IMG/VR virus record: IMGVR_UViG_3300033076_001343
Span: 8,271 to 72,270 of that record
Direction: 5' to 3' (one strand)
DNA from: a virus
DNA length: 64,000 nt
The translations under genes were made by a program, and so were the position numbers. Positions 2,698 through 36,693 of the stretch are shown piece after piece; positions within the stretch are counted from its first letter, which is position 1, and each line of letters begins with the position of its first letter. The notes under the pieces are model-generated. The model saw only the letters and a list, made by a program, of their open reading frames with translations. It was not told where the DNA came from and did no database searches.

Positions 2698-2705
2698 AAA
2701 TTTAG

Positions 2706-3930: not shown

Positions 3931-3945
3931 AAGTTTATTTAATAG

Positions 3946-4321: not shown

Positions 4322-4326
4322 GATTT

Positions 4327-4692: not shown

Positions 4693-4694
4693 AG

Positions 4695-4987: not shown

Positions 4988-4993
4988 GTATTG

Positions 4994-5065: not shown

Positions 5066-5072
5066 GTAAATG

Positions 5073-5146
5073 TCGGGGTGGCAGGATTCGAACCTACGAC
5101 CTCTTGGTCCCAAACCAAGCGCGATACCTGGCTACGCTACACCCCG
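5073..5146 (-). tRNA. tRNA-Pro (TGG)
   Basis: Acceptor CGGGGTG/CACCCCG; anticodon arm CTTGG-TTTGGGA-CCAAG; T arm GTAGG-TTCGAAT-CCTGC. Confidence 0.85.
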
Positions 5147-5203
5147 ATTATATTTTTCCCATATGTCAAAGAACACTACAAAGATAATACAAAAATCCTA
5201 TAA

Positions 5204-5238
5204 AACAAAAAAACCCCGAACTTTTTGTGTTCAGGGTT
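5204..5238 (-). terminator. intrinsic terminator (minus sense), sequence-related to the one at 1884-1925
   Basis: AACCCTGAAC...GTTCGGGGT + T7 in minus sense; lies upstream (in transcription sense) of the tRNA array. Confidence 0.5.
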
Positions 5239-5421
5239 AATCATTTTTGGCTTCTTATTACCTTTGATTAAATCTGAACACGTGAGCATAAATCTCTCCC
5301 CCCGTCATTCGTCGGTGCTAAAGTCGCTCTAAGTGTGTTCAAATTTTTCATTGTTGTAATAATAGTATAAATAGTAACAAAAGTCAAAAAATCAATTGTA
5401 ATTCAATAAAAATTCGTATAT

Positions 5422-7316: not shown

Positions 7317-7364
7317 AAATATAAATACCATTCACCATGGAAAAATATGACAATTTAATGTGTA

Positions 7365-7625
7365 TTAAACGTATTTTAAAAATATGTTTTTAAGTGCTTC
7401 CTCGTCTTCAGGTGATAAGTTGTAGTATTTCGACTTGAGTTTGTCAAGTTTTTCATGGAATTCCTGCTCCATTAAACTAATTTTCTCTTTGTCAACCAAA
7501 TCATCACTTTTTTTAATGTAACCGTGAAAAACCAATTCATCAATCAGTTCTTTGATTTCACTTTTTGAACACTCGTCAACATATTCTGACGGGTCGATGT
7601 CGATGTAAGTACTAAACTCTGGCAT
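7365..7625 (-). CDS. hypothetical protein
   Basis: 86-aa ORF in a co-directional tightly packed gene block. Confidence 0.45.
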   Translation of the reverse strand: MPEFSTYIDIDPSEYVDECSKSEIKELIDELVFHGYIKKSDDLVDKEKISLMEQEFHEKLDKLKSKYYNLSPEDEEALKNIFLKYV

Positions 7626-7626
7626 G

Positions 7627-7896
7627 TTATTTATTTTTTAATTGTTTGATAATTTCTTTGAATTTGAGCATGTAATCATAATTTTCATTTTCACCATGAA
7701 CATTGGACATTCTATCGTATATCCATTGTAGATGGTTAATATCCTTATCACTACACATTTGTTCTTTCTTCCATTCGGCACCAGCAATAAATGAACCATA
7801 GTTATCACCTGCGGTGTCATCATTGTTTGACCATTTGTGTGAGTTGGTTTCAAATACCCATTTATCTGCGGCGTCGTGCAATAGTTCTTGGTTCAT
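7627..7896 (-). CDS. hypothetical protein
   Basis: 89-aa ORF abutting its neighbours (1-nt spacing). Confidence 0.5.
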   Translation of the reverse strand: MNQELLHDAADKWVFETNSHKWSNNDDTAGDNYGSFIAGAEWKKEQMCSDKDINHLQWIYDRMSNVHGENENYDYMLKFKEIIKQLKNK

Positions 7897-7897
7897 G

Positions 7898-8362
7898 TTA
7901 TCTATTTTTCTTATAAAGTATTGTCAATGTTTCTTGATATGGATTACAACCTGGTAATCTATCATATCCTTTGGATATCATTTCCTGGTACTTTTCATCC
8001 ATCTCACAAATGTATGCCAATTCACCATTGTAATAAACACACGCAAAACTAAATCCGTTTTCGATGATAACCGTATACGCCTTAGTCATTGCAGAACCAC
8101 CAATACCTTGCCACCCACCTGAAGTATTACCCCAAGTTTGGGGAACCACGTGTAAATCAATTTCTTTCCATTGAACATACTCACCATGAGTAAGATGCGT
8201 TGATGTCTCACGTTTAACAACGTTCTTATTCCAAAACGCTTGTAAACGTTCATTTTGTTCTTTATTTCCCAAATGTTGGAAAATATTTGGTAAGTACTCA
8301 TAATCAGAGATTGCTCTTGTGATGTTTGAGATTTCTTGGATGTCTATATTAATCGTTCCCAT
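7898..8362 (-). CDS. hypothetical protein
   Basis: 154-aa ORF; the overlapping small ORF 8086-8301 in another frame is judged spurious. Confidence 0.5.
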   Translation of the reverse strand: MGTINIDIQEISNITRAISDYEYLPNIFQHLGNKEQNERLQAFWNKNVVKRETSTHLTHGEYVQWKEIDLHVVPQTWGNTSGGWQGIGGSAMTKAYTVIIENGFSFACVYYNGELAYICEMDEKYQEMISKGYDRLPGCNPYQETLTILYKKNR

Positions 8363-8377
8363 AATTATATTTTTTGT

Positions 8378-8632
8378 TTAGACATTGTGTGTTAATTCAT
8401 CCATCGTTGGTGTGAACCTATGTGCGGCTTCTCGTAAAATTGAAACCTGAACCATCGTTAGGTGTTCATAAGTGTTTCCACCCACAATATCATGAACCAT
8501 TTTACATTTAGAACGAACAATACCGTTCTCACGGATAATACCCAGTGGGTCGTCTTCTCTCATTTCATCAATTACCAAAACCAATTCTTCATCGGTCATA
8601 TCGGAGAATATTTTTGTTACCTCGTTTACCAT
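8378..8632 (-). CDS. hypothetical protein
   Basis: 84-aa ORF. Confidence 0.45.
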   Translation of the reverse strand: MVNEVTKIFSDMTDEELVLVIDEMREDDPLGIIRENGIVRSKCKMVHDIVGGNTYEHLTMVQVSILREAAHRFTPTMDELTHNV

Positions 8633-8666
8633 TGTCTTTTATTTTAGAATACAAAGATAATACTTT

Positions 8667-8894
8667 TTATTCTTCCAACCTATGTTCGGGATAAGTTTTT
8701 TTGATTATTTGTTCTAATTCTGATACAAACTTTCTTCTTTGACCGATTCTACCTTCATTCATATAAATGGTAACTCTATTTCGTTCAAATGATTTACTCA
8801 ATACTTCATTCTCGGCACAGTATTGTGCAATTTCTTCGTTGGTAATTCTTAAATCCTCCAACATTTCTTCTAATGGTATGTGTGAATTTTCCAT
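8667..8894 (-). CDS. hypothetical protein
   Basis: 75-aa ORF. Confidence 0.45.
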   Translation of the reverse strand: MENSHIPLEEMLEDLRITNEEIAQYCAENEVLSKSFERNRVTIYMNEGRIGQRRKFVSELEQIIKKTYPEHRLEE

Positions 8895-8986
8895 AATTTG
8901 TTATTTGAAATATGATTTAATCTTCATCCACACTATGTCGGGATAATTAAAGAGCCACCAAAAAAACCAATAAATTTTTTTCATTA

Positions 8987-9298
8987 TTACTCAATAATTT
9001 TATATGTTGTCTGTTTAACTTTATGATTTTCTTTAATAGAAAAATACTTTTTATATTCTTCAATAATTTTAAGGGCGTCTCTTTCTGTGGAATAAGAATG
9101 TGTTATAGTCTTCGATGTATCAAAAGAACCATATTGAGGTTCTTCAAGAATATACTCCCATTCCATATATTGTTTTCTTATCCAACCGCGTGTGGTGACT
9201 AAATACCCTCTCTGCGGGATATAACGTTTCTCACCATTATTCAATTCATTAATCTGTATTCTGTAAATGTACATAATATTATTTTTTAATCTCTCCAA
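8987..9298 (-). CDS. hypothetical protein
   Basis: 103-aa ORF. Confidence 0.45.
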   Translation of the reverse strand: MERLKNNIMYIYRIQINELNNGEKRYIPQRGYLVTTRGWIRKQYMEWEYILEEPQYGSFDTSKTITHSYSTERDALKIIEEYKKYFSIKENHKVKQTTYKIIE

Positions 9299-9471
9299 CT
9301 AATTAACATTTTGTCAGGACCTTTCTCCATTGCATCCAAATAATTATCCCACGCCATTTTGATACTTGGTGTGGTGAGTTCATTATTTGGAGCTTGAATC
9401 ACCAATGGCAATTTTCTTTTATCTTCACTAATTTGTTGAAGCTCTTTGATAAAGTCATCAATTGTTTTCAT
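9286..9471 (-). CDS. hypothetical small protein
   Basis: 61-aa ORF immediately downstream (minus sense) of tRNA-Met. Confidence 0.4.
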   Translation of the reverse strand: MKTIDDFIKELQQISEDKRKLPLVIQAPNNELTTPSIKMAWDNYLDAMEKGPDKMLISWRD

Positions 9472-9485
9472 CTTTTTTATTTTTG

Positions 9486-9559
9486 TGGTCCCTACAGGAC
9501 TTGAACCTGTGACCTACTGATTATGAGTCAGCTGCTCTGACCAACTGAGCTAAGGGACC
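9486..9559 (-). tRNA. tRNA-Met/Ile2 (CAT), outside the main array
   Basis: GGTCCCT-TAGCTCAGTTGGTCAGAGC-A-GCTGA CTCATAA TCAGT-AGGTC-ACAGG TTCAAGT CCTGT-AGGGACC-A. Confidence 0.85.
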
Positions 9560-9720: not shown

Positions 9721-10137
9721 TTACGCGGTGTGCTCCCAAACAACTCTAACACAGTTTTGAGGTAATCTGTGAATATGACGGTAATTGTTAATATAACCCA
9801 TCATATTTGCAGAACCAACAGCATTTGCAGAGTGTACAACAACATCAACCACAGGTTCACCATCCAACCATTTATTAACCAACCATTTGGTACAATCCAT
9901 ACCAGTTTTTTCGGTAATATTATCATAGTTGATTTCATAGTTTTTTACCACACCATGCAACCACTCTTTCATCGCACTATCACCCAAATCGTGGTCCAAA
10001 GAAATTAATTCAATATTCTTTAAACCAATCTCGTTGATTTTCTGTACGAATTCATCGTAAGAACGAACCACAACCCAATTATCCACGTCAACTGGTGTTC
10101 TTACGTCATCCAAATAAATTCTATATAATTTTTTCAT
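9721..10137 (-). CDS. conserved hypothetical protein (MKKLYRIYLDDVR...SLDHDLGD)
   Basis: 138-aa ORF. CAAAGATA on the + strand (the complement of TATCTTTG) lies directly upstream of its start. Confidence 0.5.
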   Translation of the reverse strand: MKKLYRIYLDDVRTPVDVDNWVVVRSYDEFVQKINEIGLKNIELISLDHDLGDSAMKEWLHGVVKNYEINYDNITEKTGMDCTKWLVNKWLDGEPVVDVVVHSANAVGSANMMGYINNYRHIHRLPQNCVRVVWEHTA

Positions 10138-11219: not shown

Positions 11220-12890
11220 ATGAGGACATTAGGATTTTCTGTTGGCCACGACAAAGGTGCGGTAATAATTGAAGATGGAAAGGTAGTTGTCGGTATAACC
11301 CAAGAAAGACTATCAAGAATTAAACATGACGGTGCATATCAAGGCGGTAAAATACCCTATGAATCTATTTTATATTGTTTAAACCATTTGAATTTGACAA
11401 TCAACGACATACATTCAATTGCATACAGTACTACTGAATTACACGATGATGTTGAGGAACAATTCAAAGATAAATTTGGAAACAGGAACTTTAATTTAAC
11501 TTTTATACCTCACCATTTAGCTCACGCATATTCAAGTTTTTTTAGTTCAGGTTTTGAACAATCCGCAGTCATTGTTGCAGATGCATCTGGAAGTATTTTA
11601 AATAGACTAAACAAGTTACACCATTGGTATCCTGACGTTACAACAGAAGGGTTAGATAAGGGTGAGGATTGGACTGAGGGTATTTCTATTTATCACATAT
11701 CAAGAAACAACCATACAGAAGTTTACAAGAAATGGATTAAGTATCCCGTACCATTAGAAACTGAAGATTGTGTATCTGTGGGTACATTATATTCTGAAGG
11801 TTCTTTACAATTAATTTATGAACCAAATGAACACACTTGGCCGGCAGGTAAATTAATGGGTCTTGCATCTTATGCAAATCAAGACATAGTTAATGAAGCA
11901 CCTGACTATATTGTTAGAAAAGATGATGACATCTTTATTCCAAACAAGAGAATTTATCCTAAAGTAAATTATAATTCTGATTTCTATTCAAAGGCCTGTG
12001 TTGCAGGAATTTATCAAAGAGAACAAGAAAGAGCATCACTTATTTTGGCAAGAATGGCGAAAGAATTAACACAGTCAAATAATATCTGTGTTGCTGGTGG
12101 TTCGTTCTTAAATTGCAATTCAAATGAAAAGATATTGAATTCAGGTCTTTTTGAAAATTCCTTCTTTATCCCTCCCGCAGATGACAGTGGTATTCCTTTA
12201 GGTTGTGCGTGGTACGCATATCAAGAATTAGTGGATATTCAAGAAACTGAAGTGTTGAGTCCTTATATTGGAAAACCTTACTCTCGTTCTGAAATAATAT
12301 CCGCAATCAATCAATTCCCGAATTTAAAATTTGAGGAATACGATAATATGGACAATTTAATTGACCTTACTTCATATTGGTTAACACAAAATAGAGTAAT
12401 TGGTTGGTTCCAAGGAGGTGCAGAAATTGGTCCAAGAGCATTAGGTAATCGTTCAATCTTGGCGTCACCTATTGAACCTTGGATGACTGGTCACATTAAC
12501 TCAGATATTAAGAAAAGAGAATGGTATAGGCCATTTGCCCCAGCAGTACTATTTGAACACCAAGGAGAAGTATTTGAATCAGATGTTTATTCTCCATATA
12601 TGTTAGTAACAACTACCGTAAAAGAAGAGTGGAGAAGTAAAATTCCTGCAGTGACTCATATTGACTATTCAGCTAGACATCAATCAGTTACGGAGAAAAG
12701 CAATCCAAAATTCTACAAACTTATCTCCAAATTTTACGAAAAAACAAATGTACCTGTTTTATTGAATACGAGCTTTAACGGACCAAAAGAACCTATTGTT
12801 GAGACACCGTCAGACGCCATTAGATGTCTCTTTGAAACTAACTTAGACCATCTAATTATTGAAAATTTTATAATCCATAGAAACATTTAA
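11220..12890 (+). CDS. carbamoyltransferase (NodU/CmcH family)
   Basis: N-terminal HHLAHAYSSFFSSGFEQSAVIVADASG motif; the 556-aa length fits the family. Confidence 0.85.
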   Translation: MRTLGFSVGHDKGAVIIEDGKVVVGITQERLSRIKHDGAYQGGKIPYESILYCLNHLNLTINDIHSIAYSTTELHDDVEEQFKDKFGNRNFNLTFIPHHLAHAYSSFFSSGFEQSAVIVADASGSILNRLNKLHHWYPDVTTEGLDKGEDWTEGISIYHISRNNHTEVYKKWIKYPVPLETEDCVSVGTLYSEGSLQLIYEPNEHTWPAGKLMGLASYANQDIVNEAPDYIVRKDDDIFIPNKRIYPKVNYNSDFYSKACVAGIYQREQERASLILARMAKELTQSNNICVAGGSFLNCNSNEKILNSGLFENSFFIPPADDSGIPLGCAWYAYQELVDIQETEVLSPYIGKPYSRSEIISAINQFPNLKFEEYDNMDNLIDLTSYWLTQNRVIGWFQGGAEIGPRALGNRSILASPIEPWMTGHINSDIKKREWYRPFAPAVLFEHQGEVFESDVYSPYMLVTTTVKEEWRSKIPAVTHIDYSARHQSVTEKSNPKFYKLISKFYEKTNVPVLLNTSFNGPKEPIVETPSDAIRCLFETNLDHLIIENFIIHRNI

Positions 12891-12926
12891 TTTTACATTT
12901 GTCGTTATTGAAATTTTAATCTATAT

Positions 12927-13631
12927 TTGTATCATACTAAATTTTTAAACATGAATTACGGAAAAGAATTTTACGCTTATTACACAAAACACTTGGGAAA
13001 ACCATCATCACACTTGGATTATTTTTCCAACCAAATCGAATCATCTATGACTCCTTATATTTTGGAGGAAAGAGAAATGAGGGCAACACAAATGGATATT
13101 TTCTCTCGTTTGATGAGAGACCGTTTGTTATGGGTTGCTGGTCCTGTAAATGACCACATGTCAACGATTGTCCAAGCACAGTTAATGTTCCTCGATTCGA
13201 CTGATAAATCTGACATTACAATGCACATTGACTCACCAGGTGGTAGTGTAAAATCAGGATTGTCTATGGTTGATGTTATGGAATATATCTCATGTGATAT
13301 TCGTACAGTAAACACAGGAATGGCAGCGTCCATGGGTTCAGTGTTATTAGGCGCAGGAACCAAGGGTAAACGTTCATCATTACGTTTTTCTCAAACAATG
13401 CTACACCAATCTTCAGGTGGTGCGGTTGGTAATATTCAAGACGCTCGTATTAATATGATTGAGTGGGAGAAAGTTAATAATATTTTATTTGAGTTGTTAG
13501 GTTCTTACTGCGGTAAGCCAGCAAAACAGGTTATGGAAGATGCTACTCGTGATTTATGGTTAAGCGCGGAAGACGCTCTTCAGTACGGGATTATTGATGA
13601 AATCGTTAAAACAAAAAAGAAGGGTAATTAA
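12927..13631 (+). CDS. clpP: ClpP-family serine protease
   Basis: Ser-His-Asp ClpP core (DSPGGSV...MGSVLL...QTMLHQSSGG). TATATTTG motif upstream. Start may be the internal Met at about 12951. Confidence 0.85.
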   Translation: MYHTKFLNMNYGKEFYAYYTKHLGKPSSHLDYFSNQIESSMTPYILEEREMRATQMDIFSRLMRDRLLWVAGPVNDHMSTIVQAQLMFLDSTDKSDITMHIDSPGGSVKSGLSMVDVMEYISCDIRTVNTGMAASMGSVLLGAGTKGKRSSLRFSQTMLHQSSGGAVGNIQDARINMIEWEKVNNILFELLGSYCGKPAKQVMEDATRDLWLSAEDALQYGIIDEIVKTKKKGN

Positions 13632-19446: not shown

Positions 19447-20466
19447 TTGATTATGGTAAAAAAAATTAAATTCTTTGACTCAATAATATTCAGTGGTGAT
19501 GTTGAATTTTTGAAATTCAGATTGACTGAATTAGACCCTTACGTTGATTATTTTATCATTGCTGATTTCAACCATGTGGATAGTGATTTATCGTTCACTA
19601 AAAACAAACATTTATTTGAAATATGGGATGATAAAATTTCTCATTTATCTGTTACTGATACTACATTTTTAAATGACATTAAGAAACAATTTATCAGTTT
19701 AAAACCAAATTTTGAGGATGTTCTAATGATATCTCAAGTTAATGAATTACCCGATTTTAATGATGTAAACGAATTTTTAAATAAACTTAAATTTGATTCA
19801 TTAATGTTAGAACACACTAATTTTATTTGGAGTAAAGATTACATTGATAACGATTTACATAGGGGTACTTTAATGTTTTCGTTTAGTTTAATTTTAAGAC
19901 AAAATAATATAATTAAAACAATATTTGATAGGCGATTTAGTCCTACAATTTACAAAGATACAATTTTTAAAAACGGATGGAGGTTTTCAAATTTTGGGTA
20001 CGATGAAAATCACAAATATCAAATAAATGAATTACTACCTCCAACAGAAATCAATCCAATATCAACTTATAGGTTAATCAAACATAACAATAAAATCCCA
20101 CTACCTAAAAACATACACTTATTACCTTATTTTAAAATAGGACGTGATGAGATTAAAAAACATTTGTTTTTGGTTGAGTCGGATTTGGAGTTTGTTAATC
20201 AAGATTATTACGATACAATCACAATAATTAATTTTAATTCAAATCTCCAAGAAATTTTATGTGAAAAGATTTCAGACAAAATAACAAAAAGTGTGTTATA
20301 TCTACCAAGTAAAGTGTTGTATGGTGACCCTGAAACATTTCAGGACGAATACATGATGAATGAAACTAAACGAATGTTCTCTGTTGTGTTTCCACAAGAA
20401 CAAGATATTATTGAGGTAATCTTTAAAAATGAAAAACCCCTCGTTTTGGGAGGGGTTTCAAATTAA
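19447..20466 (+). CDS. GT17-like glycosyltransferase (putative)
   Basis: N-terminus KIKFFDSIIFSGDVEFLKFRLTELDPYVDYFIIAD resembles the Glyco_transf_17 signature (FNEldlLelRl.eL...vD.FvIvE). Confidence 0.5.
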   Translation: MIMVKKIKFFDSIIFSGDVEFLKFRLTELDPYVDYFIIADFNHVDSDLSFTKNKHLFEIWDDKISHLSVTDTTFLNDIKKQFISLKPNFEDVLMISQVNELPDFNDVNEFLNKLKFDSLMLEHTNFIWSKDYIDNDLHRGTLMFSFSLILRQNNIIKTIFDRRFSPTIYKDTIFKNGWRFSNFGYDENHKYQINELLPPTEINPISTYRLIKHNNKIPLPKNIHLLPYFKIGRDEIKKHLFLVESDLEFVNQDYYDTITIINFNSNLQEILCEKISDKITKSVLYLPSKVLYGDPETFQDEYMMNETKRMFSVVFPQEQDIIEVIFKNEKPLVLGGVSN

Positions 20467-21782
20467 TTGTATTTGTTAAATCTGTTGAACATTTCCATGA
20501 TTCGAGTTCTTTGATTGTTGAATGATTCTTTCAAATCTTCATCAACTTCTTCAAACTCATCTTCTGTTGAGGTAAACTCTTCGTCCTCCTCGTCTAATTC
20601 ACTTTCGTATGAGAATTCTTGGTATGGTCCACCTTTACCTGGTCCATCACTTGTGAAATTATAAGCTCTGTCCATGTCACCGTAGATTCCTTGAACTCCT
20701 GAAATGTCAGGTTGTTCTTCAAGTTCTTCGTCCGCCCAAGCAGATTCCATTTCATCATACTCATACATTTTTTCAGGGTCGTATGAATACATGTCATCCT
20801 CATTAACAGGATATACATCACCAGGACCATCAGATTGGAAATTGTATGCTGGTTCTACATCAGACACATCCATATCATCAGCATCGTACTCAAACATTTC
20901 CATTTCTTCTTCATCCTCAATATCTTCAAGATAATCCTCAATTGATTTTGACCCCATTAAATGTCCTGTATCACCTTGTCTAAAAGAATACATTGGATTT
21001 CCACTCTCATAATGGTGTTCTGAATCAAACTCAAGTTCATGTGGGTCTCCAAGAGGGTTATTATATCTATATTTTTTACCTTTAACTAATTCATGAGTAC
21101 CAAGTTCGTCTAATTCACCATCAGTTACTTCTGAAGAATTAATATCTTCAAACCCATCATCTTCGTTATCAGGGTCATCAACACCATCTTCGGTATAAGA
21201 TGATTCATAATCTTCAAAGTCATCATCATCTTGTTCTTTATAAAGGTTCTTGTGCATTCCTTCAAAAGTGTCATCATCGTTTGATGAACCTTCAATATAA
21301 TCAAAACCTGCGGTTGGGTTTAAATCTTCTTCATGGTAGATATCGTCAAGATGACCAGTACCTTCTTCCATATAGGAACTACCACATTCATTACAAACAC
21401 CTTCATACATAGTTCCACCACATTCACACATTTCTGAACCTTCAGTCATTTCTTCTTCCATGTGTCCGTAATTACATTCAGTACACATACCGTCCATAAT
21501 CATGGAACCACACTCATCACAAACTTCTTTGGTTTCAACTTGTTCGTTAATTCCCATGTTAGTGTATCTTTTTACCTCACCTTTATTGTTAACGACCATA
21601 CCTTCTTTATCCCCAGCAAAGTCGTATACTGTTAATGGTTGAGTGTTAGATACCTGTGGTTGCATTGTTTGGTATCCATTATATAAACTTTTATGTTGGT
21701 TCAAAATATCTTGTTTTTCATTTGCAGATAATTGACCTAGTCCGAAATATCCTCTCATAGTTTTTTTATTTATAAATACCAC
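20463..21782 (-). CDS. extremely acidic protein with tandem CxxC zinc-ribbon motifs
   Basis: CDECGS..CTECNY and CECGG..CNECGS pairs near the N-terminus, then long D/E/Y-rich low-complexity sequence with repeated NF(T/Q)SDGPG. Start is possibly the Met at about 21758, which is preceded by GGTATTTATAAATA. Confidence 0.6.
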   Translation of the reverse strand: MVFINKKTMRGYFGLGQLSANEKQDILNQHKSLYNGYQTMQPQVSNTQPLTVYDFAGDKEGMVVNNKGEVKRYTNMGINEQVETKEVCDECGSMIMDGMCTECNYGHMEEEMTEGSEMCECGGTMYEGVCNECGSSYMEEGTGHLDDIYHEEDLNPTAGFDYIEGSSNDDDTFEGMHKNLYKEQDDDDFEDYESSYTEDGVDDPDNEDDGFEDINSSEVTDGELDELGTHELVKGKKYRYNNPLGDPHELEFDSEHHYESGNPMYSFRQGDTGHLMGSKSIEDYLEDIEDEEEMEMFEYDADDMDVSDVEPAYNFQSDGPGDVYPVNEDDMYSYDPEKMYEYDEMESAWADEELEEQPDISGVQGIYGDMDRAYNFTSDGPGKGGPYQEFSYESELDEEDEEFTSTEDEFEEVDEDLKESFNNQRTRIMEMFNRFNKYN

Positions 21783-21833: not shown

Positions 21834-22091
21834 ATGGGTACAATTGAAGAATACAATATACACGAGTTTGCCGAGGGGGCAATCATTTTGGATGGTTTGG
21901 ACGAAGCTATTGTTGGTATTACTGAAGAGTTTGGTAATGGTCGTAGAATACTTTATTCCAAAGATAAAATATTAGATATATTAATGAAACGTGACTCAAT
22001 GACTCACTCCGAGGCTGAAGAGTTTTATGACTATAATATTTTGGGATTATATGCTGGAGAACAAAATCCAGTTTTTTTGGTAACAGAATAA
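21834..22091 (+). CDS. hypothetical protein
   Basis: 85-aa ORF. Confidence 0.4.
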   Translation: MGTIEEYNIHEFAEGAIILDGLDEAIVGITEEFGNGRRILYSKDKILDILMKRDSMTHSEAEEFYDYNILGLYAGEQNPVFLVTE

Positions 22092-22127
22092 TTTGTATAT
22101 TTGTTGAATAATTAAACCTATTCAACT

Positions 22128-22625
22128 ATGAACATCTTTTTTCTTGATAACGATATCAAAAAATGTGCACAATATCACTGTGACAAACACGTGGTAAAAA
22201 TGATTTTGGAAACCGCTCAACTCCTATGTGGTGTTCATCATATGACCCCCCAAGTCGCCCCCCAAGTCCCATACAAATTGTCTCACAAAAATCACCCTTG
22301 TGCCATTTGGGCTCGTGAGTCATTAACCAACTATTTGGTATTGTGTGAACTTGGTTTGGAGTTATGTCTTGAATACACTTATCGTTATGGTAAAAGACAT
22401 AAGTCTCAAGATGTAATTGAATGGTGTGTCATCAATAAGCCAAGTATTCAGGACATTGGTCATACCGAACCTCCAAAGGCAATGCCTGATGAATACAAAG
22501 TGGATTCTGTGGTAGAATCCTATAGAAATTACTACAGAGGTGCAAAATCATCCTTTGCAGTTTGGAAAAATAGAGAAAAACCTTTTTGGTTTGAAGAAAA
22601 AGTATTAGATTTGCAGTATGATTAA
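22128..22625 (+). CDS. conserved hypothetical protein (FLDNDIKKCAQYHCDKHVVKMILETAQLL)
   Basis: 165-aa ORF; TATATTTG motif upstream. Confidence 0.5.
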   Translation: MNIFFLDNDIKKCAQYHCDKHVVKMILETAQLLCGVHHMTPQVAPQVPYKLSHKNHPCAIWARESLTNYLVLCELGLELCLEYTYRYGKRHKSQDVIEWCVINKPSIQDIGHTEPPKAMPDEYKVDSVVESYRNYYRGAKSSFAVWKNREKPFWFEEKVLDLQYD

Positions 22626-23280
22626 AATTGATAAAGACTTTAAAGGAAATGTGTGGATTTTTTCTGACCCACATTATAACCACAAAAACATCTGTCGTGG
22701 TACAACTAATTGGCGTTTACCAAATGGTGAAATTCCAATCGAGCAAACTCGTGATTTTCCTGACTTGAGTAAAATGAATGCCACAATCGTGAATAACATC
22801 AACGAGAATGTGATGCAAGATGATATCTTGATTTGTCTTGGTGATTGGTCTTTTGGTGGGTTCGAATCTATCAAAGAGTTTTGGGACCGAATAGTTTGTA
22901 AAAACATTCACTTGGTTCTTGGAAACCACGACCACCACATCGAGAACAACCGACAAGGGTGTCAGGGTTACTTCTTGAGTGTTTCTCACTACAACACTCT
23001 AAAAATTGGAGAGCATACCTTCAGATTGATGCACTACCCAATCAGTTCTTGGGATGGACTGAATAAAGGTGTGATGCACCTTCACGGTCACTGTCACTTA
23101 CCAACAAACTTACGTTTTGGTAAAGGACAACGAATGGATGTTGGAATGGACGGTCACCCTGAGTTTCGACCATACAATATTCTACGTGAAGTAGTTCCAA
23201 TGTTGAAAAAACGACCAATTACATCTGAAATGGATAATGACCACCACACAGATGAAATTCAAAACAAAGACCAAGGATGA
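22618..23280 (+). CDS. calcineurin-like metallophosphoesterase
   Basis: Motifs DPHYN (DxH), GDWSFGG (GD), GNHDHH (GNHD/E), HLHGHCH (GHxH). Confidence 0.85.
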   Translation: MIKIDKDFKGNVWIFSDPHYNHKNICRGTTNWRLPNGEIPIEQTRDFPDLSKMNATIVNNINENVMQDDILICLGDWSFGGFESIKEFWDRIVCKNIHLVLGNHDHHIENNRQGCQGYFLSVSHYNTLKIGEHTFRLMHYPISSWDGLNKGVMHLHGHCHLPTNLRFGKGQRMDVGMDGHPEFRPYNILREVVPMLKKRPITSEMDNDHHTDEIQNKDQG

Positions 23281-23615
23281 TTAAAATTGAATATTATTAT
23301 AAACAACCAAAACAAGAATACTTTGACGAGGTAAAATCGGCATGTATTAAGGCTTGGGGTTTGTTTGATGACCAATTTGGTTATGCGACCGAAAAGATTA
23401 ATAGTATCAAGGATTTGGAGAACAATGCAACAAATTACATGATGATGATTAAAATGTTTCATGTATTAAATTGGGAAATTCTCGCAGAAATGTTATCTTT
23501 GGAGACAAGAAACGATATCAGTATTAGATTGAATGCTGGTGTTGAACATTGTGAAACAGATTTCTTTAGTATTTGGGGAAAAAACGAAGCACAAGAAAAA
23601 TATGGCTACTTGTAA
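23277..23615 (+). CDS. hypothetical protein
   Basis: 112-aa ORF; shares its first 14 nt (ATGATTAAAATTGA) with the preceding gene. Confidence 0.45.
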   Translation: MIKIEYYYKQPKQEYFDEVKSACIKAWGLFDDQFGYATEKINSIKDLENNATNYMMMIKMFHVLNWEILAEMLSLETRNDISIRLNAGVEHCETDFFSIWGKNEAQEKYGYL

Positions 23616-23790
23616 AGAGTGTCCTTGGAGGATAAAAAATAAGCACAACGAATCAATTGTGGGGTTTTCCAAACGAATGGATAAACCTCACAATTGTCAC
23701 ATGGTAAAAGGAGGAAAAGACCTTTGGAATGTGGAAGAAAAAACAAAATGTAAAGGAAGACAAGATTATGAAAAATCTATATTTAGTTAG
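23602..23790 (+). CDS. small Cys/His-rich protein (possible zinc finger)
   Basis: MATCKECPWRIKNKHN...HNCHM; start chosen at the internal Met of ORF 23533-23790. Confidence 0.35.
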   Translation: MATCKECPWRIKNKHNESIVGFSKRMDKPHNCHMVKGGKDLWNVEEKTKCKGRQDYEKSIFS

Positions 23791-24178
23791 AGGACTACCT
23801 GGTTCAGGTAAATCAACATTCGCAAGGTCGATAGCCAAATCGTATCAGATATTTGAGGCCGACCAGTATTTCATGAAAAAGGGAAAATATAATTTTGACC
23901 CAAAAAAATTAAAAGACGCTCATCATGATTGCAAACAAAGAGTTGCAAGAAGAATGAGAGAAAGTTTGTTTAATGATATTTTTTTCAGTAATATTGTGGT
24001 GTCAAATACATTCACTCAAGATTGGGAAATGAAGTTTTATCGTTGTATTGCAAAACGATACGGCTATAAAGTTCATACCATTATTGTTGAGAATAGACAC
24101 GGAGGAACTAACGTCCATGGAGTTCCCGAAGAAAAAGTACAAATCATGGAAGACCGATTTGAAATAAAATTAAAATAA
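23768..24178 (+). CDS. P-loop polynucleotide kinase-like protein (kinase domain only)
   Basis: Walker A GLPGSGKST at the N-terminus; size and fold class resemble the 5'-kinase domain of T4 Pnk/bacterial Pnkp. Confidence 0.7.
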   Translation: MKNLYLVRGLPGSGKSTFARSIAKSYQIFEADQYFMKKGKYNFDPKKLKDAHHDCKQRVARRMRESLFNDIFFSNIVVSNTFTQDWEMKFYRCIAKRYGYKVHTIIVENRHGGTNVHGVPEEKVQIMEDRFEIKLK

Positions 24179-24183
24179 AACAT

Positions 24184-24402
24184 ATGCAAACGTTAATATT
24201 CAACACAACAACAAAAGAAGTAACTCTATTAGAGGGTGCGAGAGGTAAATCAGGTATTCTTGAAAACTTTAAAAACATATCAACCGTAAAAATCGAAGAT
24301 GGTTTTTATCAGGTAATGCAAAAGACAAGTGAGGATACAAATTCATCCATCCCTGTGATGAGGGTACCAATTTCAAACACAAACATGATTATCGAAAAAT
24401 AA
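24184..24402 (+). CDS. hypothetical protein
   Basis: 72-aa ORF followed by a strong intrinsic terminator. Confidence 0.4.
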   Translation: MQTLIFNTTTKEVTLLEGARGKSGILENFKNISTVKIEDGFYQVMQKTSEDTNSSIPVMRVPISNTNMIIEK

Positions 24403-24409
24403 TCAACTA

Positions 24410-24442
24410 ATCCCCATCTTTTTTACAGGTGGGGATTTTTTA
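24410..24442 (+). terminator. intrinsic terminator between the kinase block and the RNA ligase
   Basis: TCCCCATC-TTTTTTACAG-GTGGGGA + T6. Confidence 0.6.
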
Positions 24443-24469
24443 TTGCCAAAAAATTCGTATCTTTGTCCC

Positions 24470-25525
24470 ATGAGCGAATTTCTATACACTTTGGAACAAT
24501 ACAGTCGAACTGGTCATCTGTTTAAACAGACCCACCGCACTTTACCATTGTCTATATGGAACTACACTCCTGAAGTACAATACGGTCAAAAGTGGGATAA
24601 TATAACCCTACAATGCCGTGGTTTAGTAACCGACGACAAAGGTAACGTTATATCTTACCCATTCAAGAAATTCTTCAACATCGAAGAACAAAAACACACT
24701 CCAACTGAAAGTTTCGAGGTTTACGAAAAAATGGATGGTTCGTTAGGTATGTTGTTCTTTTATGAAGGTAAATGGGTGGTTGCCACTCGTGGTTCATTCC
24801 ATTCTGACCAAGCAAACAAAGCAACAGAATTGTTAAATTCAAAATACAACTTGGAATCTTTACCTAAAGGTTATACCACTTTATTTGAAATCATCTACCC
24901 TGAAAACCGTATCGTGGTTGATTATGGTAATGAAGAAATGTTGGTTGTATTGGGTATGACTAACCGATTCAACGGTAAAGAGTTGGACTATGAATCAGTT
25001 GTTAATTTGGCAAGTGAATCAGGTATGCCAGTTGTTAAGAGATATGACGGTATCAAAGATTACAACTCATTAAAGGCTTTGGTTGATAATAACTCTGAAG
25101 GTTTTGTTGTCAAATTCTCTAACGGTGACCGAATGAAAATCAAAGGTGAAGAATATCTACGACTTCACAAGATAATGACCAACGTATCAACTACTGGTGT
25201 GTGGGAAATGTTATCTTCAGGTGGTGATATCAACGAACATTTGAAAGACGTTCCTGATGAATTCTACAATAAAGTACAGGAGTATGCAAAAACTTTACAG
25301 TACGGTTTTTATCAAGTATCAGAACAATGCGGTAAAGCTCACGACTATTTCCGTTATGGAAAATATGGTGACCGTGAAACTGAACCAACTAAAAAAGAAT
25401 ATGCGGAACACGTAATGAAAAATTCGCATCCACCATATCGTTCAGTAATGTTTGCAATGTGGGATGGTAAACCATATGATAAACTTATATGGAACCTACT
25501 TAAACCTGAATTCAAAAAATTGTAA
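24470..25525 (+). CDS. ATP-dependent RNA ligase
   Basis: Nucleotidyltransferase motif I KMDGS (KxDG) and motif IV EGFVVK. Start set at MSEFLYT, directly preceded by TATCTTTG. Confidence 0.75.
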   Translation: MSEFLYTLEQYSRTGHLFKQTHRTLPLSIWNYTPEVQYGQKWDNITLQCRGLVTDDKGNVISYPFKKFFNIEEQKHTPTESFEVYEKMDGSLGMLFFYEGKWVVATRGSFHSDQANKATELLNSKYNLESLPKGYTTLFEIIYPENRIVVDYGNEEMLVVLGMTNRFNGKELDYESVVNLASESGMPVVKRYDGIKDYNSLKALVDNNSEGFVVKFSNGDRMKIKGEEYLRLHKIMTNVSTTGVWEMLSSGGDINEHLKDVPDEFYNKVQEYAKTLQYGFYQVSEQCGKAHDYFRYGKYGDRETEPTKKEYAEHVMKNSHPPYRSVMFAMWDGKPYDKLIWNLLKPEFKKL

Positions 25526-25526
25526 T

Positions 25527-25772
25527 ATGGAACAAGTGTTTAAAGAAATTTACGAACAGAATATAGACCATAGCATGATTCTTGACAAAGAATCTGTTAT
25601 GGTTTGTATTGAAAAATCTTACGAGATTGGGAAAGAAGAATCTCAAGAAAAATATGACAAACTGAAAAGTGCGTTTGAAGATTTGCTGGAACTTTGGGGT
25701 GACTACGGGAAATACAATTCTTCCCGTAATCACATGGAAGAGGACTGGAGAAAGGAGGCAGGACTATCATGA
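25527..25772 (+). CDS. hypothetical protein
   Basis: Start moved to MEQVFKE to avoid overlap with the ligase. Confidence 0.4.
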   Translation: MEQVFKEIYEQNIDHSMILDKESVMVCIEKSYEIGKEESQEKYDKLKSAFEDLLELWGDYGKYNSSRNHMEEDWRKEAGLS

Positions 25773-25975
25773 CAAATGAAGAAAGAATCGAAGAACGATT
25801 GATGCACGCACATGAAAGGGGTTATTACCATAAGGTTATGACTAAAGTTAAAGAATTGATTAAAATAAACCCAAAGGCAAACCAATATGAATTGTACGAA
25901 ACGGTTTGTGACGAATATAAACAAGAATGGTTGAACGAAAATGAAAATGGAACTACTGAACACACACCCAATTAA
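25769..25975 (+). CDS. hypothetical protein
   Basis: 68-aa ORF. Confidence 0.4.
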   Translation: MTNEERIEERLMHAHERGYYHKVMTKVKELIKINPKANQYELYETVCDEYKQEWLNENENGTTEHTPN

Positions 25976-26366
25976 GAAATCTGATTTAGGATTTCATGGA
26001 AACCTTTTTGGTGGAAAGTTATTAGCTTGGATTGACGCCGCGGCTGCAGGTTACTCAATGCAGTTGTGTGATAGTCCAAGGATGGTAACAGTATCTATTG
26101 ATAAATGTTATTTTGAAAAACCCGCAAGAGAAGGTCAATTATTGAAAATTTACGGACACCCAAGTAAGTTGGGTAATACGTCCATAACTCTTTACATGGA
26201 GGCAAGAGCACATAATGTTTACACAGGAAATCAAGTTGTGGTCTTGAAAACAAACATAAGATTTGTTAGAATTGACGAGGAAGGGAATCCGATTCCGATT
26301 GGAGAAAAGGGTAGAAACCGAATCGAAAAACTAATCAATGATTTTAAAGAAAATAATGAAGGGTAA
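25941..26366 (+). CDS. hotdog-fold acyl-CoA thioesterase
   Basis: HGNLFGGKLLAWIDAAAAGYSM is typical of YbgC/4HBT-like thioesterases. Confidence 0.7.
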   Translation: MKMELLNTHPIKKSDLGFHGNLFGGKLLAWIDAAAAGYSMQLCDSPRMVTVSIDKCYFEKPAREGQLLKIYGHPSKLGNTSITLYMEARAHNVYTGNQVVVLKTNIRFVRIDEEGNPIPIGEKGRNRIEKLINDFKENNEG

Positions 26367-26964
26367 ATTAGTATATCAAACTGCAGACCCAGAGATGGTC
26401 AATAGTGTGGAGGGATGGTTTATTCGTTCTGATTCCTCTTATCAAGTGTCGGAATTATCAGTTAAAAAAATTAACAGTGGCAAATACAACATCAAAGATG
26501 GTGATGAGGTAGAATTTGAGATTGAAACAAATTGCTCTGTTATTGATGGTGTTAAGGTTATCCACTCCGTTGTCGCAAAAATAGTAATGGAAGATAATCA
26601 ATACACAAAAGTTTTCCTAATTGATATTGATGGGACAATTTGTGATGATATTAAAAATGAAGAAAGTCACTTATATCCAACAGCCAAATTATTTCCATCG
26701 GCACTTGAGATAATCAATAAGTGGTATGACGAAGGTCATGTTATAACATTCTTTACCGCTCGTGAAGGTAAAGACCGTGAAGTAACTGAAACTTGGTTGA
26801 AAGAGAATGGTTTTAAATATCATGGTTTAGTGATGGACAAACCAAGAATTAAAGATAATCAAGAATACGTTTGGATTGATAATCGAAAAGTTAGAGCGGT
26901 CACTTATTTAGGTACTTGGTCAGAACTCAGAGAGGTTGATGCGAAAATACAAATATTTGAATAA
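26338..26964 (+). CDS. HAD-superfamily phosphatase (nucleotidase / polynucleotide 3'-phosphatase-like) with N-terminal extension
   Basis: Motif I LIDIDGTI (DxDGT), motif II TFFTAR, C-terminal WIDNRK. About 90-aa N-terminal domain of unknown function. Confidence 0.65.
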   Translation: MILKKIMKGKLVYQTADPEMVNSVEGWFIRSDSSYQVSELSVKKINSGKYNIKDGDEVEFEIETNCSVIDGVKVIHSVVAKIVMEDNQYTKVFLIDIDGTICDDIKNEESHLYPTAKLFPSALEIINKWYDEGHVITFFTAREGKDREVTETWLKENGFKYHGLVMDKPRIKDNQEYVWIDNRKVRAVTYLGTWSELREVDAKIQIFE

Positions 26965-27314
26965 TGGTAGATTTAACAAGATTATTAATAGGTATTATTT
27001 TTGGACTCATTGCACAGGTTGGAACATTTTTCCAATTGCAAGGACCCATGAAATATGAATGGTTGAAAACCCATTATTGGTTCAATGTGTTACTTGGTAT
27101 ACCTATTTCAATGTTATTCATATATTCAGTTCAGAATATGATATTGGCATTTGGTGGTCAAATGTGGCCTTCAAGGTTGATTGGTTTCAGTATTGGTGCA
27201 ATGGTATTCACCATATTAAGTTGGCAGATTTTCAACGAACCTTTGAGTTTGAAAACATTTGTGTGTTTAATGTTGGCATTTGGAATATTAATGGTACAAT
27301 TATTTTGGAAGTAA
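26964..27314 (+). CDS. small integral membrane protein
   Basis: 116 aa with about four hydrophobic segments. Confidence 0.5.
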   Translation: MVDLTRLLIGIIFGLIAQVGTFFQLQGPMKYEWLKTHYWFNVLLGIPISMLFIYSVQNMILAFGGQMWPSRLIGFSIGAMVFTILSWQIFNEPLSLKTFVCLMLAFGILMVQLFWK

Positions 27315-27318
27315 GATT

Positions 27319-27510
27319 ATGAATAATATGACTGATGTTGAAAAATCGGCACTAATATCAAAGTTAGATTATGAAATGACCAAAGCGATTTTAAATGGTC
27401 ATAAGTCAGTTGTTGGTGATAAATTCCAAGAACATAGGGACACAATATTAAAACTAAGAAAAGAATTATTTCCAAACTCAGTTTGGGCTTTAGGAACAAA
27501 ACAATATTAA
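27319..27510 (+). CDS. hypothetical protein
   Basis: 63-aa ORF. Confidence 0.4.
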   Translation: MNNMTDVEKSALISKLDYEMTKAILNGHKSVVGDKFQEHRDTILKLRKELFPNSVWALGTKQY

Positions 27511-27513
27511 AAT

Positions 27514-28578
27514 ATGAATAGTTTAGACAAACAATATCAAGATTTACTCCAATCAATTTTGGATTATGGGGTTGAAAAGAAAGACCGAACAGGTACAGGT
27601 ACCAAATCTATTTTTGGTTATACCATTCGTCATAATATGAGTGAAGGATTTCCTGTATTAACAACCAAGAAAATGGCTTGGAAGACTATGGTAACCGAAC
27701 TTCTATGGTTCCTTCGTGGTGATACAAACATCAAGTTCCTTGTCGATAATGGTTGTCATATTTGGGATGGCGATGCTTATAAGAATTATTTAATTGAAGA
27801 TGCTAAAATCTTACCTAATATGTCAAAGGAAAAAATGTTAGAGTTTGGATTTGGATTAACAAAAGAAGAATTCATCAACAAAATCAAAACAGATGATGAG
27901 TTTGCTAAGAAGTGGGGTGAATTAGGCCCTGTGTATGGTAAGCAATGGAGAAGTTGGGATGCTCATAATAAATACGATATTGACCCAACACCTGTAGACC
28001 AAATCACAAACCTAATTAACGACCTTAAAACAAATCCTGACTCAAGACGATTAATGGTTTCAGCTTGGAATGTAGGTGAATTAGACCAAATGGTTCTCCC
28101 TCCTTGTCATTATGGATTTCAAGTTTATACAAGAGAGTTGAGTGAAGGTGAAAGAGGATTGTTGTTACAACCCTACGGATTAGACCCATTAACAAAAGAA
28201 GGTAGAGATAGAGTATGGAAAGAAAATAATTTACCAACAAGAGCCATCTCTTTAATGTGGAATCAACGTTCAGTAGATACATTCTTAGGTTTACCATTTA
28301 ACATCGCATCTTACGGACTTCTATTGACTATTTTAGCAAAAGAAGTTAACATGGTTCCTGACCAACTGATTGGTAATTTAGGTGATACCCACCTTTACCT
28401 TAATCATATTGAACAGGCAAAAGAACAGATTACAAGAGAACCATTTAAGTTACCGACTCTCAATCAATTCCCAACTTACGAAGGTTCAAGACCATCAATA
28501 GAATCTTATGTGGTTAGTGATTTTACACTTAAAGATTATCAATCACACGAATCAATTAAAGCACCATTATCAAATTAA
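27514..28578 (+). CDS. thyA: thymidylate synthase (ThyA) with two insertions
   Basis: RTGTGT, LPPCH, FNIASY and DTHLYLNH motifs. 354 aa versus about 264 aa for a typical ThyA; extra segments lie near residues 95-140 and after PPCH. Confidence 0.9.
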   Translation: MNSLDKQYQDLLQSILDYGVEKKDRTGTGTKSIFGYTIRHNMSEGFPVLTTKKMAWKTMVTELLWFLRGDTNIKFLVDNGCHIWDGDAYKNYLIEDAKILPNMSKEKMLEFGFGLTKEEFINKIKTDDEFAKKWGELGPVYGKQWRSWDAHNKYDIDPTPVDQITNLINDLKTNPDSRRLMVSAWNVGELDQMVLPPCHYGFQVYTRELSEGERGLLLQPYGLDPLTKEGRDRVWKENNLPTRAISLMWNQRSVDTFLGLPFNIASYGLLLTILAKEVNMVPDQLIGNLGDTHLYLNHIEQAKEQITREPFKLPTLNQFPTYEGSRPSIESYVVSDFTLKDYQSHESIKAPLSN

Positions 28579-36018: not shown

Positions 36019-36693
36019 ATGAAAATAGTATTCATCAGCGACACACACGGAAAACATGAAGTTTTAACAACCAAGGCATATAATAACATCTTGGGTGAAG
36101 GGGATATCCTTGTCCACGCAGGAGATTGCACCAACTTAGGAAAAACTCACGAAGTTAAAGAGTTTTTGGATTGGTTTTCTAACACACCATTCACTCATAA
36201 AGTATTCATCGCAGGTAACCATGATTGGGGATTTGTAAAAAACCACGACATTGCACCTGAATATAAAGAAAAAGGGGTTCATTACCTTTTTGACAGTATG
36301 GTTGAATTGGGTGGTGTTAAAATCTACGGAAGTCCATGGCAACCTGAATTCTACAATTGGGCATTCAACCTACCAAGAGGAGAAAAACTAGCTGAGAAGT
36401 GGGCAAAAATCCCTGAAGGTCTTGATATCTTAATTACTCATGGTCCCGCACATGGAATGGTTGACCACACTATGCAAGGTCTAAATGTTGGTTGTGAAGA
36501 TTTGTTCACCAAAATTTTGGAAGTTCAACCAAAAATCCATGTTTGTGGTCATATCCATTGGGCTTATGGTCAGAAATCATTCCATGGGGTTGAGTTCTTA
36601 AATGCAAGTGTCTTAAATGAAAGATATCAATACCAAAACAAACCAATCGTAATTGAGTATAATCCTGAAACTAAAGAAATTGAGTATGTCTAA
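36019..36693 (+). CDS. calcineurin-like metallophosphoesterase (second copy, distinct family)
   Basis: SDTHGKHE, HAGDCTNLG, AGNHDWGF, ITHGPAHG, VCGHIHWAYG motifs; TATATTTG upstream. Confidence 0.85.
   Translation: MKIVFISDTHGKHEVLTTKAYNNILGEGDILVHAGDCTNLGKTHEVKEFLDWFSNTPFTHKVFIAGNHDWGFVKNHDIAPEYKEKGVHYLFDSMVELGGVKIYGSPWQPEFYNWAFNLPRGEKLAEKWAKIPEGLDILITHGPAHGMVDHTMQGLNVGCEDLFTKILEVQPKIHVCGHIHWAYGQKSFHGVEFLNASVLNERYQYQNKPIVIEYNPETKEIEYV

Follow-up and report, generated by a model that had tools for sequence, protein, structure and literature searches.

A candidate phage RNA end-healing and sealing cassette encoding a metallophosphoesterase, a Pnk-like kinase and an Rnl1-family ligase as separate proteins

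Described RNA repair systems and the locus

In phage T4, tRNA repair by Pnkp (PseT) and the RNA ligase Rnl1 counters the anticodon nuclease PrrC. Here a region with comparable components is analyzed in a 64,000-nucleotide stretch of viral DNA (positions 8,271 to 72,270 of IMG/VR record IMGVR_UViG_3300033076_001343; this whole stretch is called the window, and coordinates refer to it). Separate genes on its + strand encode a metallophosphoesterase (MPE; 22618-23280), a kinase-only Pnk-like P-loop kinase (23768-24178) and a T4 Rnl1-family ATP-dependent RNA ligase (24470-25525), and it is proposed with moderate confidence that these proteins form a phage RNA end-healing and sealing cassette. An initial annotation of the sequence had grouped a fourth protein, a HAD phosphatase (26338-26964, + strand), with them in one repair module; all four open reading frames (ORFs) are found at these positions with the motifs ascribed to them, and the cassette as proposed here excludes the HAD protein.

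The resemblance to the T4 system includes the ligase family and its motifs, a kinase for which the T4 Pnk kinase domain is the nearest match by predicted structure, the presence of tRNA genes in the same phage, and a predicted logic in which the 3' end is healed, the 5' end is phosphorylated and the break is sealed. Unlike T4 Pnkp, the window kinase stands alone, without a HAD phosphatase domain and without an equivalent of Arg38, and the 3' healing candidate is the MPE (perhaps with a cRec protein) rather than a fused HAD domain. The window ligase also differs from T4 Rnl1 in being only ~25% identical to it and below the NCBIfam equivalog cut-off. The same three chemistries are combined in the bacterial Pnkp/Hen1 system of Clostridium thermocellum, which has kinase, MPE and ligase domains and whose kinase (CthPnk) is among the best matches of the window kinase. 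In Runella slithyformis, HD-Pnk is a characterized 2',3'-phosphoesterase/5'-kinase end-healing enzyme that is encoded beside a ligase (Munir and Shuman, 2017, as summarized in PMC6097658). Some close relatives of the window kinase are fused to an N-terminal HD phosphoesterase domain and so share this architecture, and phage Pyxpy01 carries an HD gene beside its own repair genes, whereas the window phosphoesterase is an MPE rather than an HD protein and is a separate polypeptide.

Contiguous genes of the same three families occur in several cultured phages (phi92 gp097-gp095, Cilsick gp167-170, Pyxpy01, Boevelstad and phiA009), whose kinases are 37-48%, MPEs 25-32% and ligases 25-31% identical to the window proteins. 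The window ligase is longer than theirs (351 versus ~300 amino acids) and keeps a C-terminal region, the window cassette adds phrog_624 and Cys/His-rich proteins, and none of their neighbours resembling nicotinamide/nicotinate phosphoribosyltransferase (NAMPT) or phosphoribosyl pyrophosphate (PRPP) synthetase was seen in the window. A kinase-only Pnk/RNA ligase pair is also known from Pakpunavirus Adele, for which restoration of tRNA by RNA ligases and a kinase without a 3'-phosphatase domain has been proposed (PMC12846349). In addition, a catalogue of RNA repair functions in jumbo phages lists Rnl1/Rnl2 ATP-grasp ligases, Pnk, HAD, calcineurin-like and HD phosphatases, cRec proteins, CCA-adding enzymes and large numbers of tRNA genes (Iyer et al., 2021, PMC7824862, after Burroughs and Aravind, 2016), and the window and its relatives show the same components. 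Calcineurin-like phosphatases are a minority in that catalogue, whereas here no partner of Rnl1 is as constant as the MPE (28 of 32 contigs).

The window is therefore a further example of a kind of phage repair cassette that has already been described bioinformatically (PMC7824862; PMC12846349), and it leaves current understanding in place, since comparative genomics has already set out the general scheme. What seems under-described is the constancy with which an AQ_1665-type MPE accompanies Rnl1, the missing acceptor arginine of the kinase subfamily, and two conserved uncharacterized proteins; no biochemical characterization of a split MPE-kinase-Rnl1 trio was found in the limited literature searched. 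If the three proteins do heal and seal RNA, the window would add a Bacteroidota phage to the cases that, like T4, reverse tRNA cleavage by the host, and phages may most often rely on separate proteins, namely MPE, kinase-only Pnk and Rnl1, instead of the fused T4 Pnkp. The comparison also makes the AQ_1665-type phosphoesterase family a candidate for 3'-end healing of RNA, draws attention to a Pnk-like kinase subfamily without the canonical acceptor arginine, and gives the phrog_624 and Cys/His-rich proteins a testable context.

Gene linkage, ligase and kinase

In the proposed pathway, cleavage by a ribonuclease of the host, usually an anticodon nuclease of the metal-independent kind, would leave a 2',3'-cyclic phosphate and a 5'-OH. 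The MPE, possibly aided by a cRec protein encoded at 9721-10137, would generate a 3'-OH by removing the cyclic phosphate or the 3' phosphate, the kinase-only Pnk-like protein would phosphorylate the 5'-OH, and the Rnl1-family ligase would seal the break via lysyl-AMP at K87. The presumed target is tRNA, and the large phage-borne tRNA set mentioned in the initial annotation is indeed present as an array of 14 genes (812-9559, - strand; ARAGORN), whose products are candidate substrates or substitutes. By analogy with T4, and in view of comparative genomics (PMC7824862), tRNA repair as a counter-defence against anticodon nucleases is plausible.

This healing-and-sealing reading is reasonable because Rnl1 and the Pnk-like kinase are linked to the MPE across many phages. 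Searching viral contigs for relatives of the ligase yielded 80 loci (54-85% identity), which collapsed at 90% ligase identity into 32 non-redundant clusters. When same-strand ORF neighbours at the 80 loci were ranked by unbiased clustering, the MPE (64 loci), the kinase (44), the phrog_624 protein (33) and the Cys/His protein (29) headed the list. The corresponding counts near the ligase in the 32 non-redundant contigs are 28, 21, 14 and 13, and are followed by those for cRec (9), a second, DRB0094/Rnl5-type ligase (7), a CYTH protein (5) and a CCA-adding enzyme (4). The MPE and kinase genes share the strand of the ligase gene throughout, the sole exception being an MPE match on the opposite strand (L017), and gene order is variable, with MPE-kinase-ligase in some contigs and ligase-MPE-kinase in others. 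Linkage of the phosphoesterase, kinase and ligase is far beyond chance.

Independent support for this linkage is provided by cultured phages of different taxa. MPE, Rnl1 and kinase genes are contiguous within ~2.5 kb in Aeromonas phage phiA009, Pseudomonas phages Pyxpy01 and Boevelstad, Vibrio phage Cilsick (Demerecviridae) and E. coli phage phi92. The best cultured match of the window ligase, from Streptomyces phage Elmer (38% identity), has a full-length Pnk gene 650 bp downstream, inside a tRNA cluster.

Several other genes accompany Rnl1 in subsets of these genomes, and those for cRec, a CCA-adding enzyme and a second ligase give the neighbourhoods an RNA-related character that favours the repair reading. 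Relatives without the kinase can encode a second RNA ligase just 5' of Rnl1 (PHA02142 OB-fold plus PF09414, DRB0094/Rnl5 type; for example L058:8742-9764 and L015:2442-3470), and the 32 clusters divide into 18 with the kinase only, 4 with the second ligase only, 3 with both and 7 with neither. Some relatives encode a CCA-adding enzyme (PolyA_pol head domain, E 1.2e-19) within a few kb of Rnl1, and some encode there a protein resembling CYTH (E 4.9e-4, below the cut-off); examples for the two together are L062:1731-2468 and L044:8169-8630, and neither protein is found in the window. In Pyxpy01, Cilsick, Boevelstad and phi92 (L003, L085, L086 and L087), the trio adjoins genes annotated as ribose-phosphate pyrophosphokinase and nicotinamide/nicotinate phosphoribosyltransferase. 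These PRPP-synthetase-like and NAMPT-like neighbours resemble a phage NAD+ reconstitution pathway, and the combination of the trio with NAD-type neighbours suggests a counter-defence island.

The ligase (351 amino acids) matches Pfam PF09511 (RNA_lig_T4_1; E 4e-21, 76.3 bits versus a cut-off of 28.3) and phrog_562 (E 4.4e-73), the latter over profile positions 24-366 of 377, including the C-terminus. The T4 Rnl1 structures 2c5u and 5tt6 match it at ~1e-14, and pairwise alignment with T4 Rnl1 ends at T4 residue 295 of 374. In this family, specificity for tRNA comes from a helical domain at the C-terminus. Alignment to 2c5u places QCRG, KKFF, motif I (KMDGS, with K87), motif III (LFEII), motif IV (EGFVVK) and motif V (KIK) against their T4 counterparts. 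The equivalents of T4 R54, K75 and F77 are kept and that of K119 is replaced by Arg (TRGS); these four are the Rnl1-specific residues in the set that mutagenesis of T4 Rnl1 marks as essential. Judged from its sequence, the protein is a divergent member of the Rnl1 family rather than an equivalog, because it passes the Pfam threshold and misses the NCBIfam equivalog threshold. The question raised in the initial annotation, whether the enzyme is of the RNA or the DNA ligase type, is accordingly answered in favour of an RNA ligase, with Pfam, PHROG and T4 Rnl1 structures all giving the same assignment.

The kinase (136 amino acids; Pfam AAA_33 E 4.8e-13, phrog_2071 E 7.9e-39) is a candidate RNA 5'-OH kinase. 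The best Protein Data Bank (PDB) matches of a family profile built from 17 diverse homologues are T4 Pnk (1.1e-5), PSTK (4e-5), CthPnk (2.4e-4) and Pnkp1 (6.4e-3); adenylate and shikimate kinases are weaker in this search and match the P-loop region only. With an AlphaFold2 (AF2) model (predicted local distance difference test, pLDDT, 74), Foldseek ranks 1-17 are all T4 Pnk or CthPnk (template modelling score 0.67-0.71), and fungal Trl1 kinases, PSTK and mammalian PNKP come after them. The protein is therefore Pnk-like, as the initial annotation had it, being closer in both profile and predicted fold to polynucleotide kinases than to nucleoside monophosphate (NMP) kinases; by sequence and model, it is probably a polynucleotide kinase.

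Most of the residues expected of such an enzyme can be located. In T4 Pnk and CthPnk, D35 and D38, respectively, act as the general base, an Arg at D+3 anchors the first phosphodiester, and T86 (T4) or T80 (Cth) is the acceptor-site threonine (PMC3902929). The window kinase has a GLPGSGKST P-loop, in which K15 and S16 are invariant among the 17 homologues; an aspartate that is invariant too, D32 of the EAD motif, falls opposite T4 D35 whether the alignment is made with phmmer or with the profile, and the invariant T81 (SNT81) of the kinase is aligned to T4 T86 (SDT86) in the profile alignment. An invariant ENR110H could contribute the lid arginine; the T4 alignment ends before R110, and pLDDT is below 50 at residues 111-114. 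Besides R110, the kinase has an invariant R8 ahead of the P-loop and R130.

Protein fusions also connect the kinase with the ligase. Among the 150 best kinase-family representatives from 1.84 billion proteins, there are an Rnl1-kinase fusion (P0391) and a kinase-Rnl1 fusion (P0419), the ligase part of the latter being closely similar to the window ligase, and there are five HD-kinase proteins (P0400, P0406, P0421, P0439 and P0454). An N4BP2-type label for the kinase comes from the annotation of one phage record, N4BP2 being a protein with a PNK domain (PMC6598757). The kinase also matches the P-loop part of the PADLOC model CARF4--CARF_PDDEXK_AAA (E 4.8e-14), and a kinase-like domain of this sort is therefore also used in a candidate CARF-linked defence protein.

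The metallophosphoesterase and the weighing of readings

The calcineurin-type MPE (220 amino acids; Pfam Metallophos E 4.8e-7, phrog_547 E 1e-38) is a candidate 3'-end healing enzyme that would remove a 2',3'-cyclic phosphate or 3'-phosphate. Its motifs SDPHYNH, GDWSFGG, GNHDHH, MHYP and HGHCH supply the elements of a binuclear metal site (D17-x-H19, G75-D76, G102-N103-H104-D105, H139 and G157-H158-x-H160), which are invariant or nearly so across homologues. Sequence and fold searches agree that the nearest solved relative is Aquifex AQ_1665, a protein of unknown function. A homologous relationship to the phosphatase domain of Pnkp was considered and rejected, as both kinds of search group the MPE with AQ_1665. 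It is gene linkage that points to RNA-end hydrolysis by the MPE, and this activity should be regarded as predicted.

It is unlikely, although a case can be made, that the MPE, with or without cRec, acts on immune signals or nucleotides (cyclic oligonucleotides, Ap4A or (p)ppGpp-like molecules) and that only the kinase and ligase act on RNA. After AQ_1665, Ap4A hydrolases and lambda phosphatase are among the nearest folds to the MPE, phages are predicted to use calcineurin-like phosphodiesterases against nucleotide signals (PMC7824862), and the NAMPT-like and PRPP-synthetase-like genes beside the cultured-phage trios belong to NAD or nucleotide metabolism. Flavobacterium phage vB_FspM_immuto, moreover, encodes an MPE homologue (L001:3446-4126; 49% identity) directly after four tRNA genes, with no ligase in the part of its genome inspected. 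Against an action on small molecules stands the tight same-strand linkage of the MPE to Rnl1 and the kinase, which extends across distant phage taxa and survives rearrangements. Furthermore, a break with a 2',3'-cyclic phosphate needs a 3' healing activity beyond those of kinase and ligase, for which the MPE is the only constant candidate.

Several observations weigh against the proposal that MPE, kinase and ligase jointly heal and seal RNA. Since the related contigs have a common ancestry, the counts obtained from them are only partly independent. The MPE lies by sequence outside the lambda-phosphatase/Pnkp subfamily, which has a GDxxDR-type motif II (lambda E 0.88), and its AF2 model is poor, so that the fold rankings carry little weight because pLDDT is only 60. 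Neither Rnl1 nor the kinase was found in the 69 kb of immuto that were inspected (17.9-87 kb of 160 kb), and the MPE can therefore occur without the ligase. The ligase scores 77.4 bits against the 242.25 bits of the NCBIfam T4 RnlA equivalog model (TIGR02308). In the kinase family, the acceptor-site Arg (T4 R38, Cth R41) is replaced by an invariant Phe, F35; its acceptor could differ from that of Pnk because of this replacement, and the protein is described as Pnk-like instead of as a proven member of the T4/Cth Pnk group because the acceptor Arg is missing. Bacterial stand-alone homologues of the kinase (in Halomonadaceae, Bacteroidota, Vibrio and Leptospira) have no ligase or MPE gene within 4 kb in a genome scan that recovered 80 loci, all with stand-alone homologues and none from Runella.

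A final point of this kind is that a strong terminator-like hairpin (24409-24437, + strand; an 11-bp stem followed by a T-run) parts the kinase gene from the ligase gene. A Bacteroidetes-type -7 box (TATCTTTG; 24458-24465, + strand), found by a search for this motif by hand and identified by its match to the consensus, ends 4 nucleotides before the ligase ATG, which suggests from sequence that the ligase transcript is nearly leaderless. Because the hairpin and the promoter box lie between them, the healing genes (phrog_624, MPE, two small ORFs, kinase and a further small ORF) and the ligase gene appear to be two transcription units. This division of the block 5' of the ligase had escaped the initial annotation. 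The pairing of a hairpin with a TAnnTTTG box recurs 5' of the ligase gene in several related loci, and a second hairpin (22053-22072) with the box TATATTTG at 22096, likewise a consensus match (element 22053-22103), precedes the phrog_624 gene. A scan for sigma-70 promoters was uninformative, with 37 sites found in comparison to 33 expected.

The hairpin, together with the missing acceptor Arg, could also be taken to indicate that there is no joint function, that is, that early or auxiliary genes are found together by shared ancestry, the ligase being mainly a gp63-like factor for tail-fibre attachment or the kinase a nucleotide kinase. The annotation of phrog_562 ('RNA ligase and tail fiber protein attachment catalyst') and neighbours of nucleotide metabolism such as ThyA fit this view. 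It is nonetheless very unlikely, given that the ligase keeps its catalytic residues, kinase-Rnl1 fusion proteins exist, the trio is found again in phages that differ in family and host, and no NMP or deoxynucleoside monophosphate kinase ranks above Pnk enzymes in profile or fold searches.

The HAD phosphatase and other genes of the window

The HAD phosphatase (26338-26964, + strand; 208 amino acids, with an N-terminal extension of ~85 amino acids) is judged to lie outside the repair cassette. Most of its homologues have 202 amino acids, which fits a start six codons downstream, and homologues with the same N-terminal extension are common. The HAD motifs are present as D96-I-D-G-T, T140 (FFTAR), K168 (DKPR) and D181-N (WIDNR). 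The cut-offs of LNS2_PITM1-3 (LNS2_PITM E 5.5e-9) and Acid_phosphat_B (E 1.2e-7) are passed, the score for HAD_PNKP (PF25109) is below its cut-off (19.4 versus 27.6 bits; E 1.2e-3), and so is a match to the NCBIfam BT0820 family (E 5e-5). The protein also matches the phosphatase part of two PHROGs annotated as polynucleotide kinase (phrog_415 at 7.6e-12 and phrog_505 at 6.4e-7).

The initial annotation had the HAD protein supply a phosphatase to a four-gene module, and it is indeed conceivable that this is a T4 Pnk-type 3'-phosphatase, acting beside the MPE or as the true 3' healer while the MPE does something else. Besides the DxDGT motif (D96), motifs II-IV, the two PHROG matches and the weak Pfam HAD_PNKP match, the gene follows that of the ligase on the same strand and no terminator is predicted in between, stand-alone HAD phosphatases have been described as parts of phage RNA repair (PMC7824862), and HAD and kinase homologues are ~1.6 kb apart in two loci of Flavobacteriales metagenome-assembled genomes (MAGs). 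Neighbourhood analysis nevertheless makes this quite unlikely. Whereas the MPE, kinase and Rnl1 genes are linked in many phages, a HAD gene is near Rnl1 in only 4 of the 80 related loci, all of them the window's closest relatives, and is absent from all five cultured-phage trios. The HAD contigs L088-L092 have the gene beside or near ThyA, with a 4HBT thioesterase gene as well in L090-L092, and contain no ligase, kinase, MPE or cRec gene. Cultured-phage relatives are found in heptose or sugar contexts, and the families that fit the protein best are LNS2, acid phosphatase B and BT0820, with HAD_PNKP below threshold. Membership of the HAD protein in the repair module was therefore rejected, its partners being the thioesterase and ThyA.

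The HAD gene belongs instead to a block of thioesterase, HAD, membrane protein and ThyA genes that adjoins the cassette and probably serves nucleotide or sugar-phosphate metabolism. This block (25941-28578) has genes for a 4HBT thioesterase, HAD and ThyA, interspersed with one for DUF2452 or for a small membrane protein, and related phages (L090-L092) carry it independently of the ligase; a DUF2452 gene is found elsewhere in the window (44243-44668). In the Flavobacteriales MAGs (L119:1940-4411 and L132), the HAD-domain homologue (~50% identity) lacks the N-terminal extension, and its gene and that of the kinase homologue (33-35% identity) occupy opposite strands, separated by an unrelated gene and set among housekeeping-looking genes, an arrangement that tells against a shared module. 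These chromosomal homologues may represent a host-lineage source of the phage HAD and kinase genes.

A further candidate repair function, overlooked in the initial annotation, is the cRec (cyclic-phosphate processing receiver) domain protein (9721-10137, - strand; 138 amino acids; Pfam cREC_REC PF20274 E 5.1e-22, 78.8 bits versus a cut-off of 27). According to a published prediction, domains of this type remove 2',3'-cyclic phosphates from ends that ATP-grasp RNA ligases are to join (PMC7824862). In the window, the gene adjoins that for tRNA-Met and is 14 kb away from the ligase cassette on the other strand. Its homologues (49-85% identity) share the strand of Rnl1 at 24 of the 80 related loci, where they lie 2.1-5.9 kb 5' of it and precede the phrog_624 and MPE genes, so the window cRec gene is a probable displaced member of the cassette.

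The phrog_624 protein (22128-22625, + strand; 165 amino acids; phrog_624 E 1.4e-60) is a conserved member of the cassette whose gene overlaps the start of the MPE gene by 8 nucleotides. The gene is directly 5' of the MPE gene in 14 of the 32 non-redundant contigs, and between cRec and MPE where cRec is present. The family is labelled 'DNA binding protein', a match to the pyrimidine-dimer glycosylase family (Pfam Pyr_excise; 2.1e-4) is below the cut-off, and searches of PDB sequences and PADLOC returned no match.

Small ORFs lie among the healing genes, and the description of them as Cys-rich in the initial annotation holds for one, at 23599-23790 (+ strand; ~63 amino acids; no family match), and not for the others. 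C4, C7, H15, H30, C32, H33 and C50 are invariant in seven diverse homologues of this Cys/His-rich protein, which by these residues is a probable zinc-binding accessory; its ORF is between the MPE gene and that of the kinase (or second ligase) in 13 of the 32 non-redundant contigs. The ORF at 23277-23615 (+ strand; 112 amino acids) has homologues in 12 related loci, between the MPE gene and the Cys-rich ORF. That at 24184-24402 (+ strand; 72 amino acids), the last gene before the hairpin, has homologues in 13 related loci, at a median of ~300 nucleotides 5' of the ligase start. None of the three small ORFs has a match in Pfam, PDB or PADLOC.

It is possible to go further and to view the cassette of freshwater phages, with cRec, phrog_624, an AQ_1665-type MPE, a zinc protein, either the kinase or a DRB0094/Rnl5-type nick-sealing ligase, and Rnl1, as an RNA repair system of its own with several components. 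New repair or targeting factors would then be found in the phrog_624 protein and the zinc protein, and the alternation of kinase and second ligase would reflect two chemistries tuned to different host ribonucleases. This extension is doubtful at present; if true, it would provide the first functional assignment for the AQ_1665 phosphoesterase family.

The setting of these genes suggests that the window derives from a large phage of a Bacteroidota host. It has a G+C content of ~33% and TAnnTTTG boxes of the Bacteroidetes type immediately 5' of gene starts, and its only DNA-level match among cultured phages, spanning the thioesterase and ThyA genes, is to Flavobacterium phage vB_FspM_immuto. Many of the related contigs come from metagenomes, at least one of which is labelled freshwater.

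The window also contains auxiliary genes that are unusual in a phage, encoding a carbamoyltransferase (E 1.7e-67), a ClpP protease (E 7.9e-55), a cyclophilin (E 2.6e-43) and a CAP-family protein, as well as an extremely acidic protein of 439 amino acids that is Cys-rich in its N-terminal part and matches no family (coordinates for this group are 11220-13631, 47071-47520, 5422-6003 and 20463-21782). A second metallophosphoesterase, encoded at 36019-36693, matches Metallophos_2 (E 4.3e-13) and the PADLOC candidate defence family PDC-S10 (E 5.5e-86).

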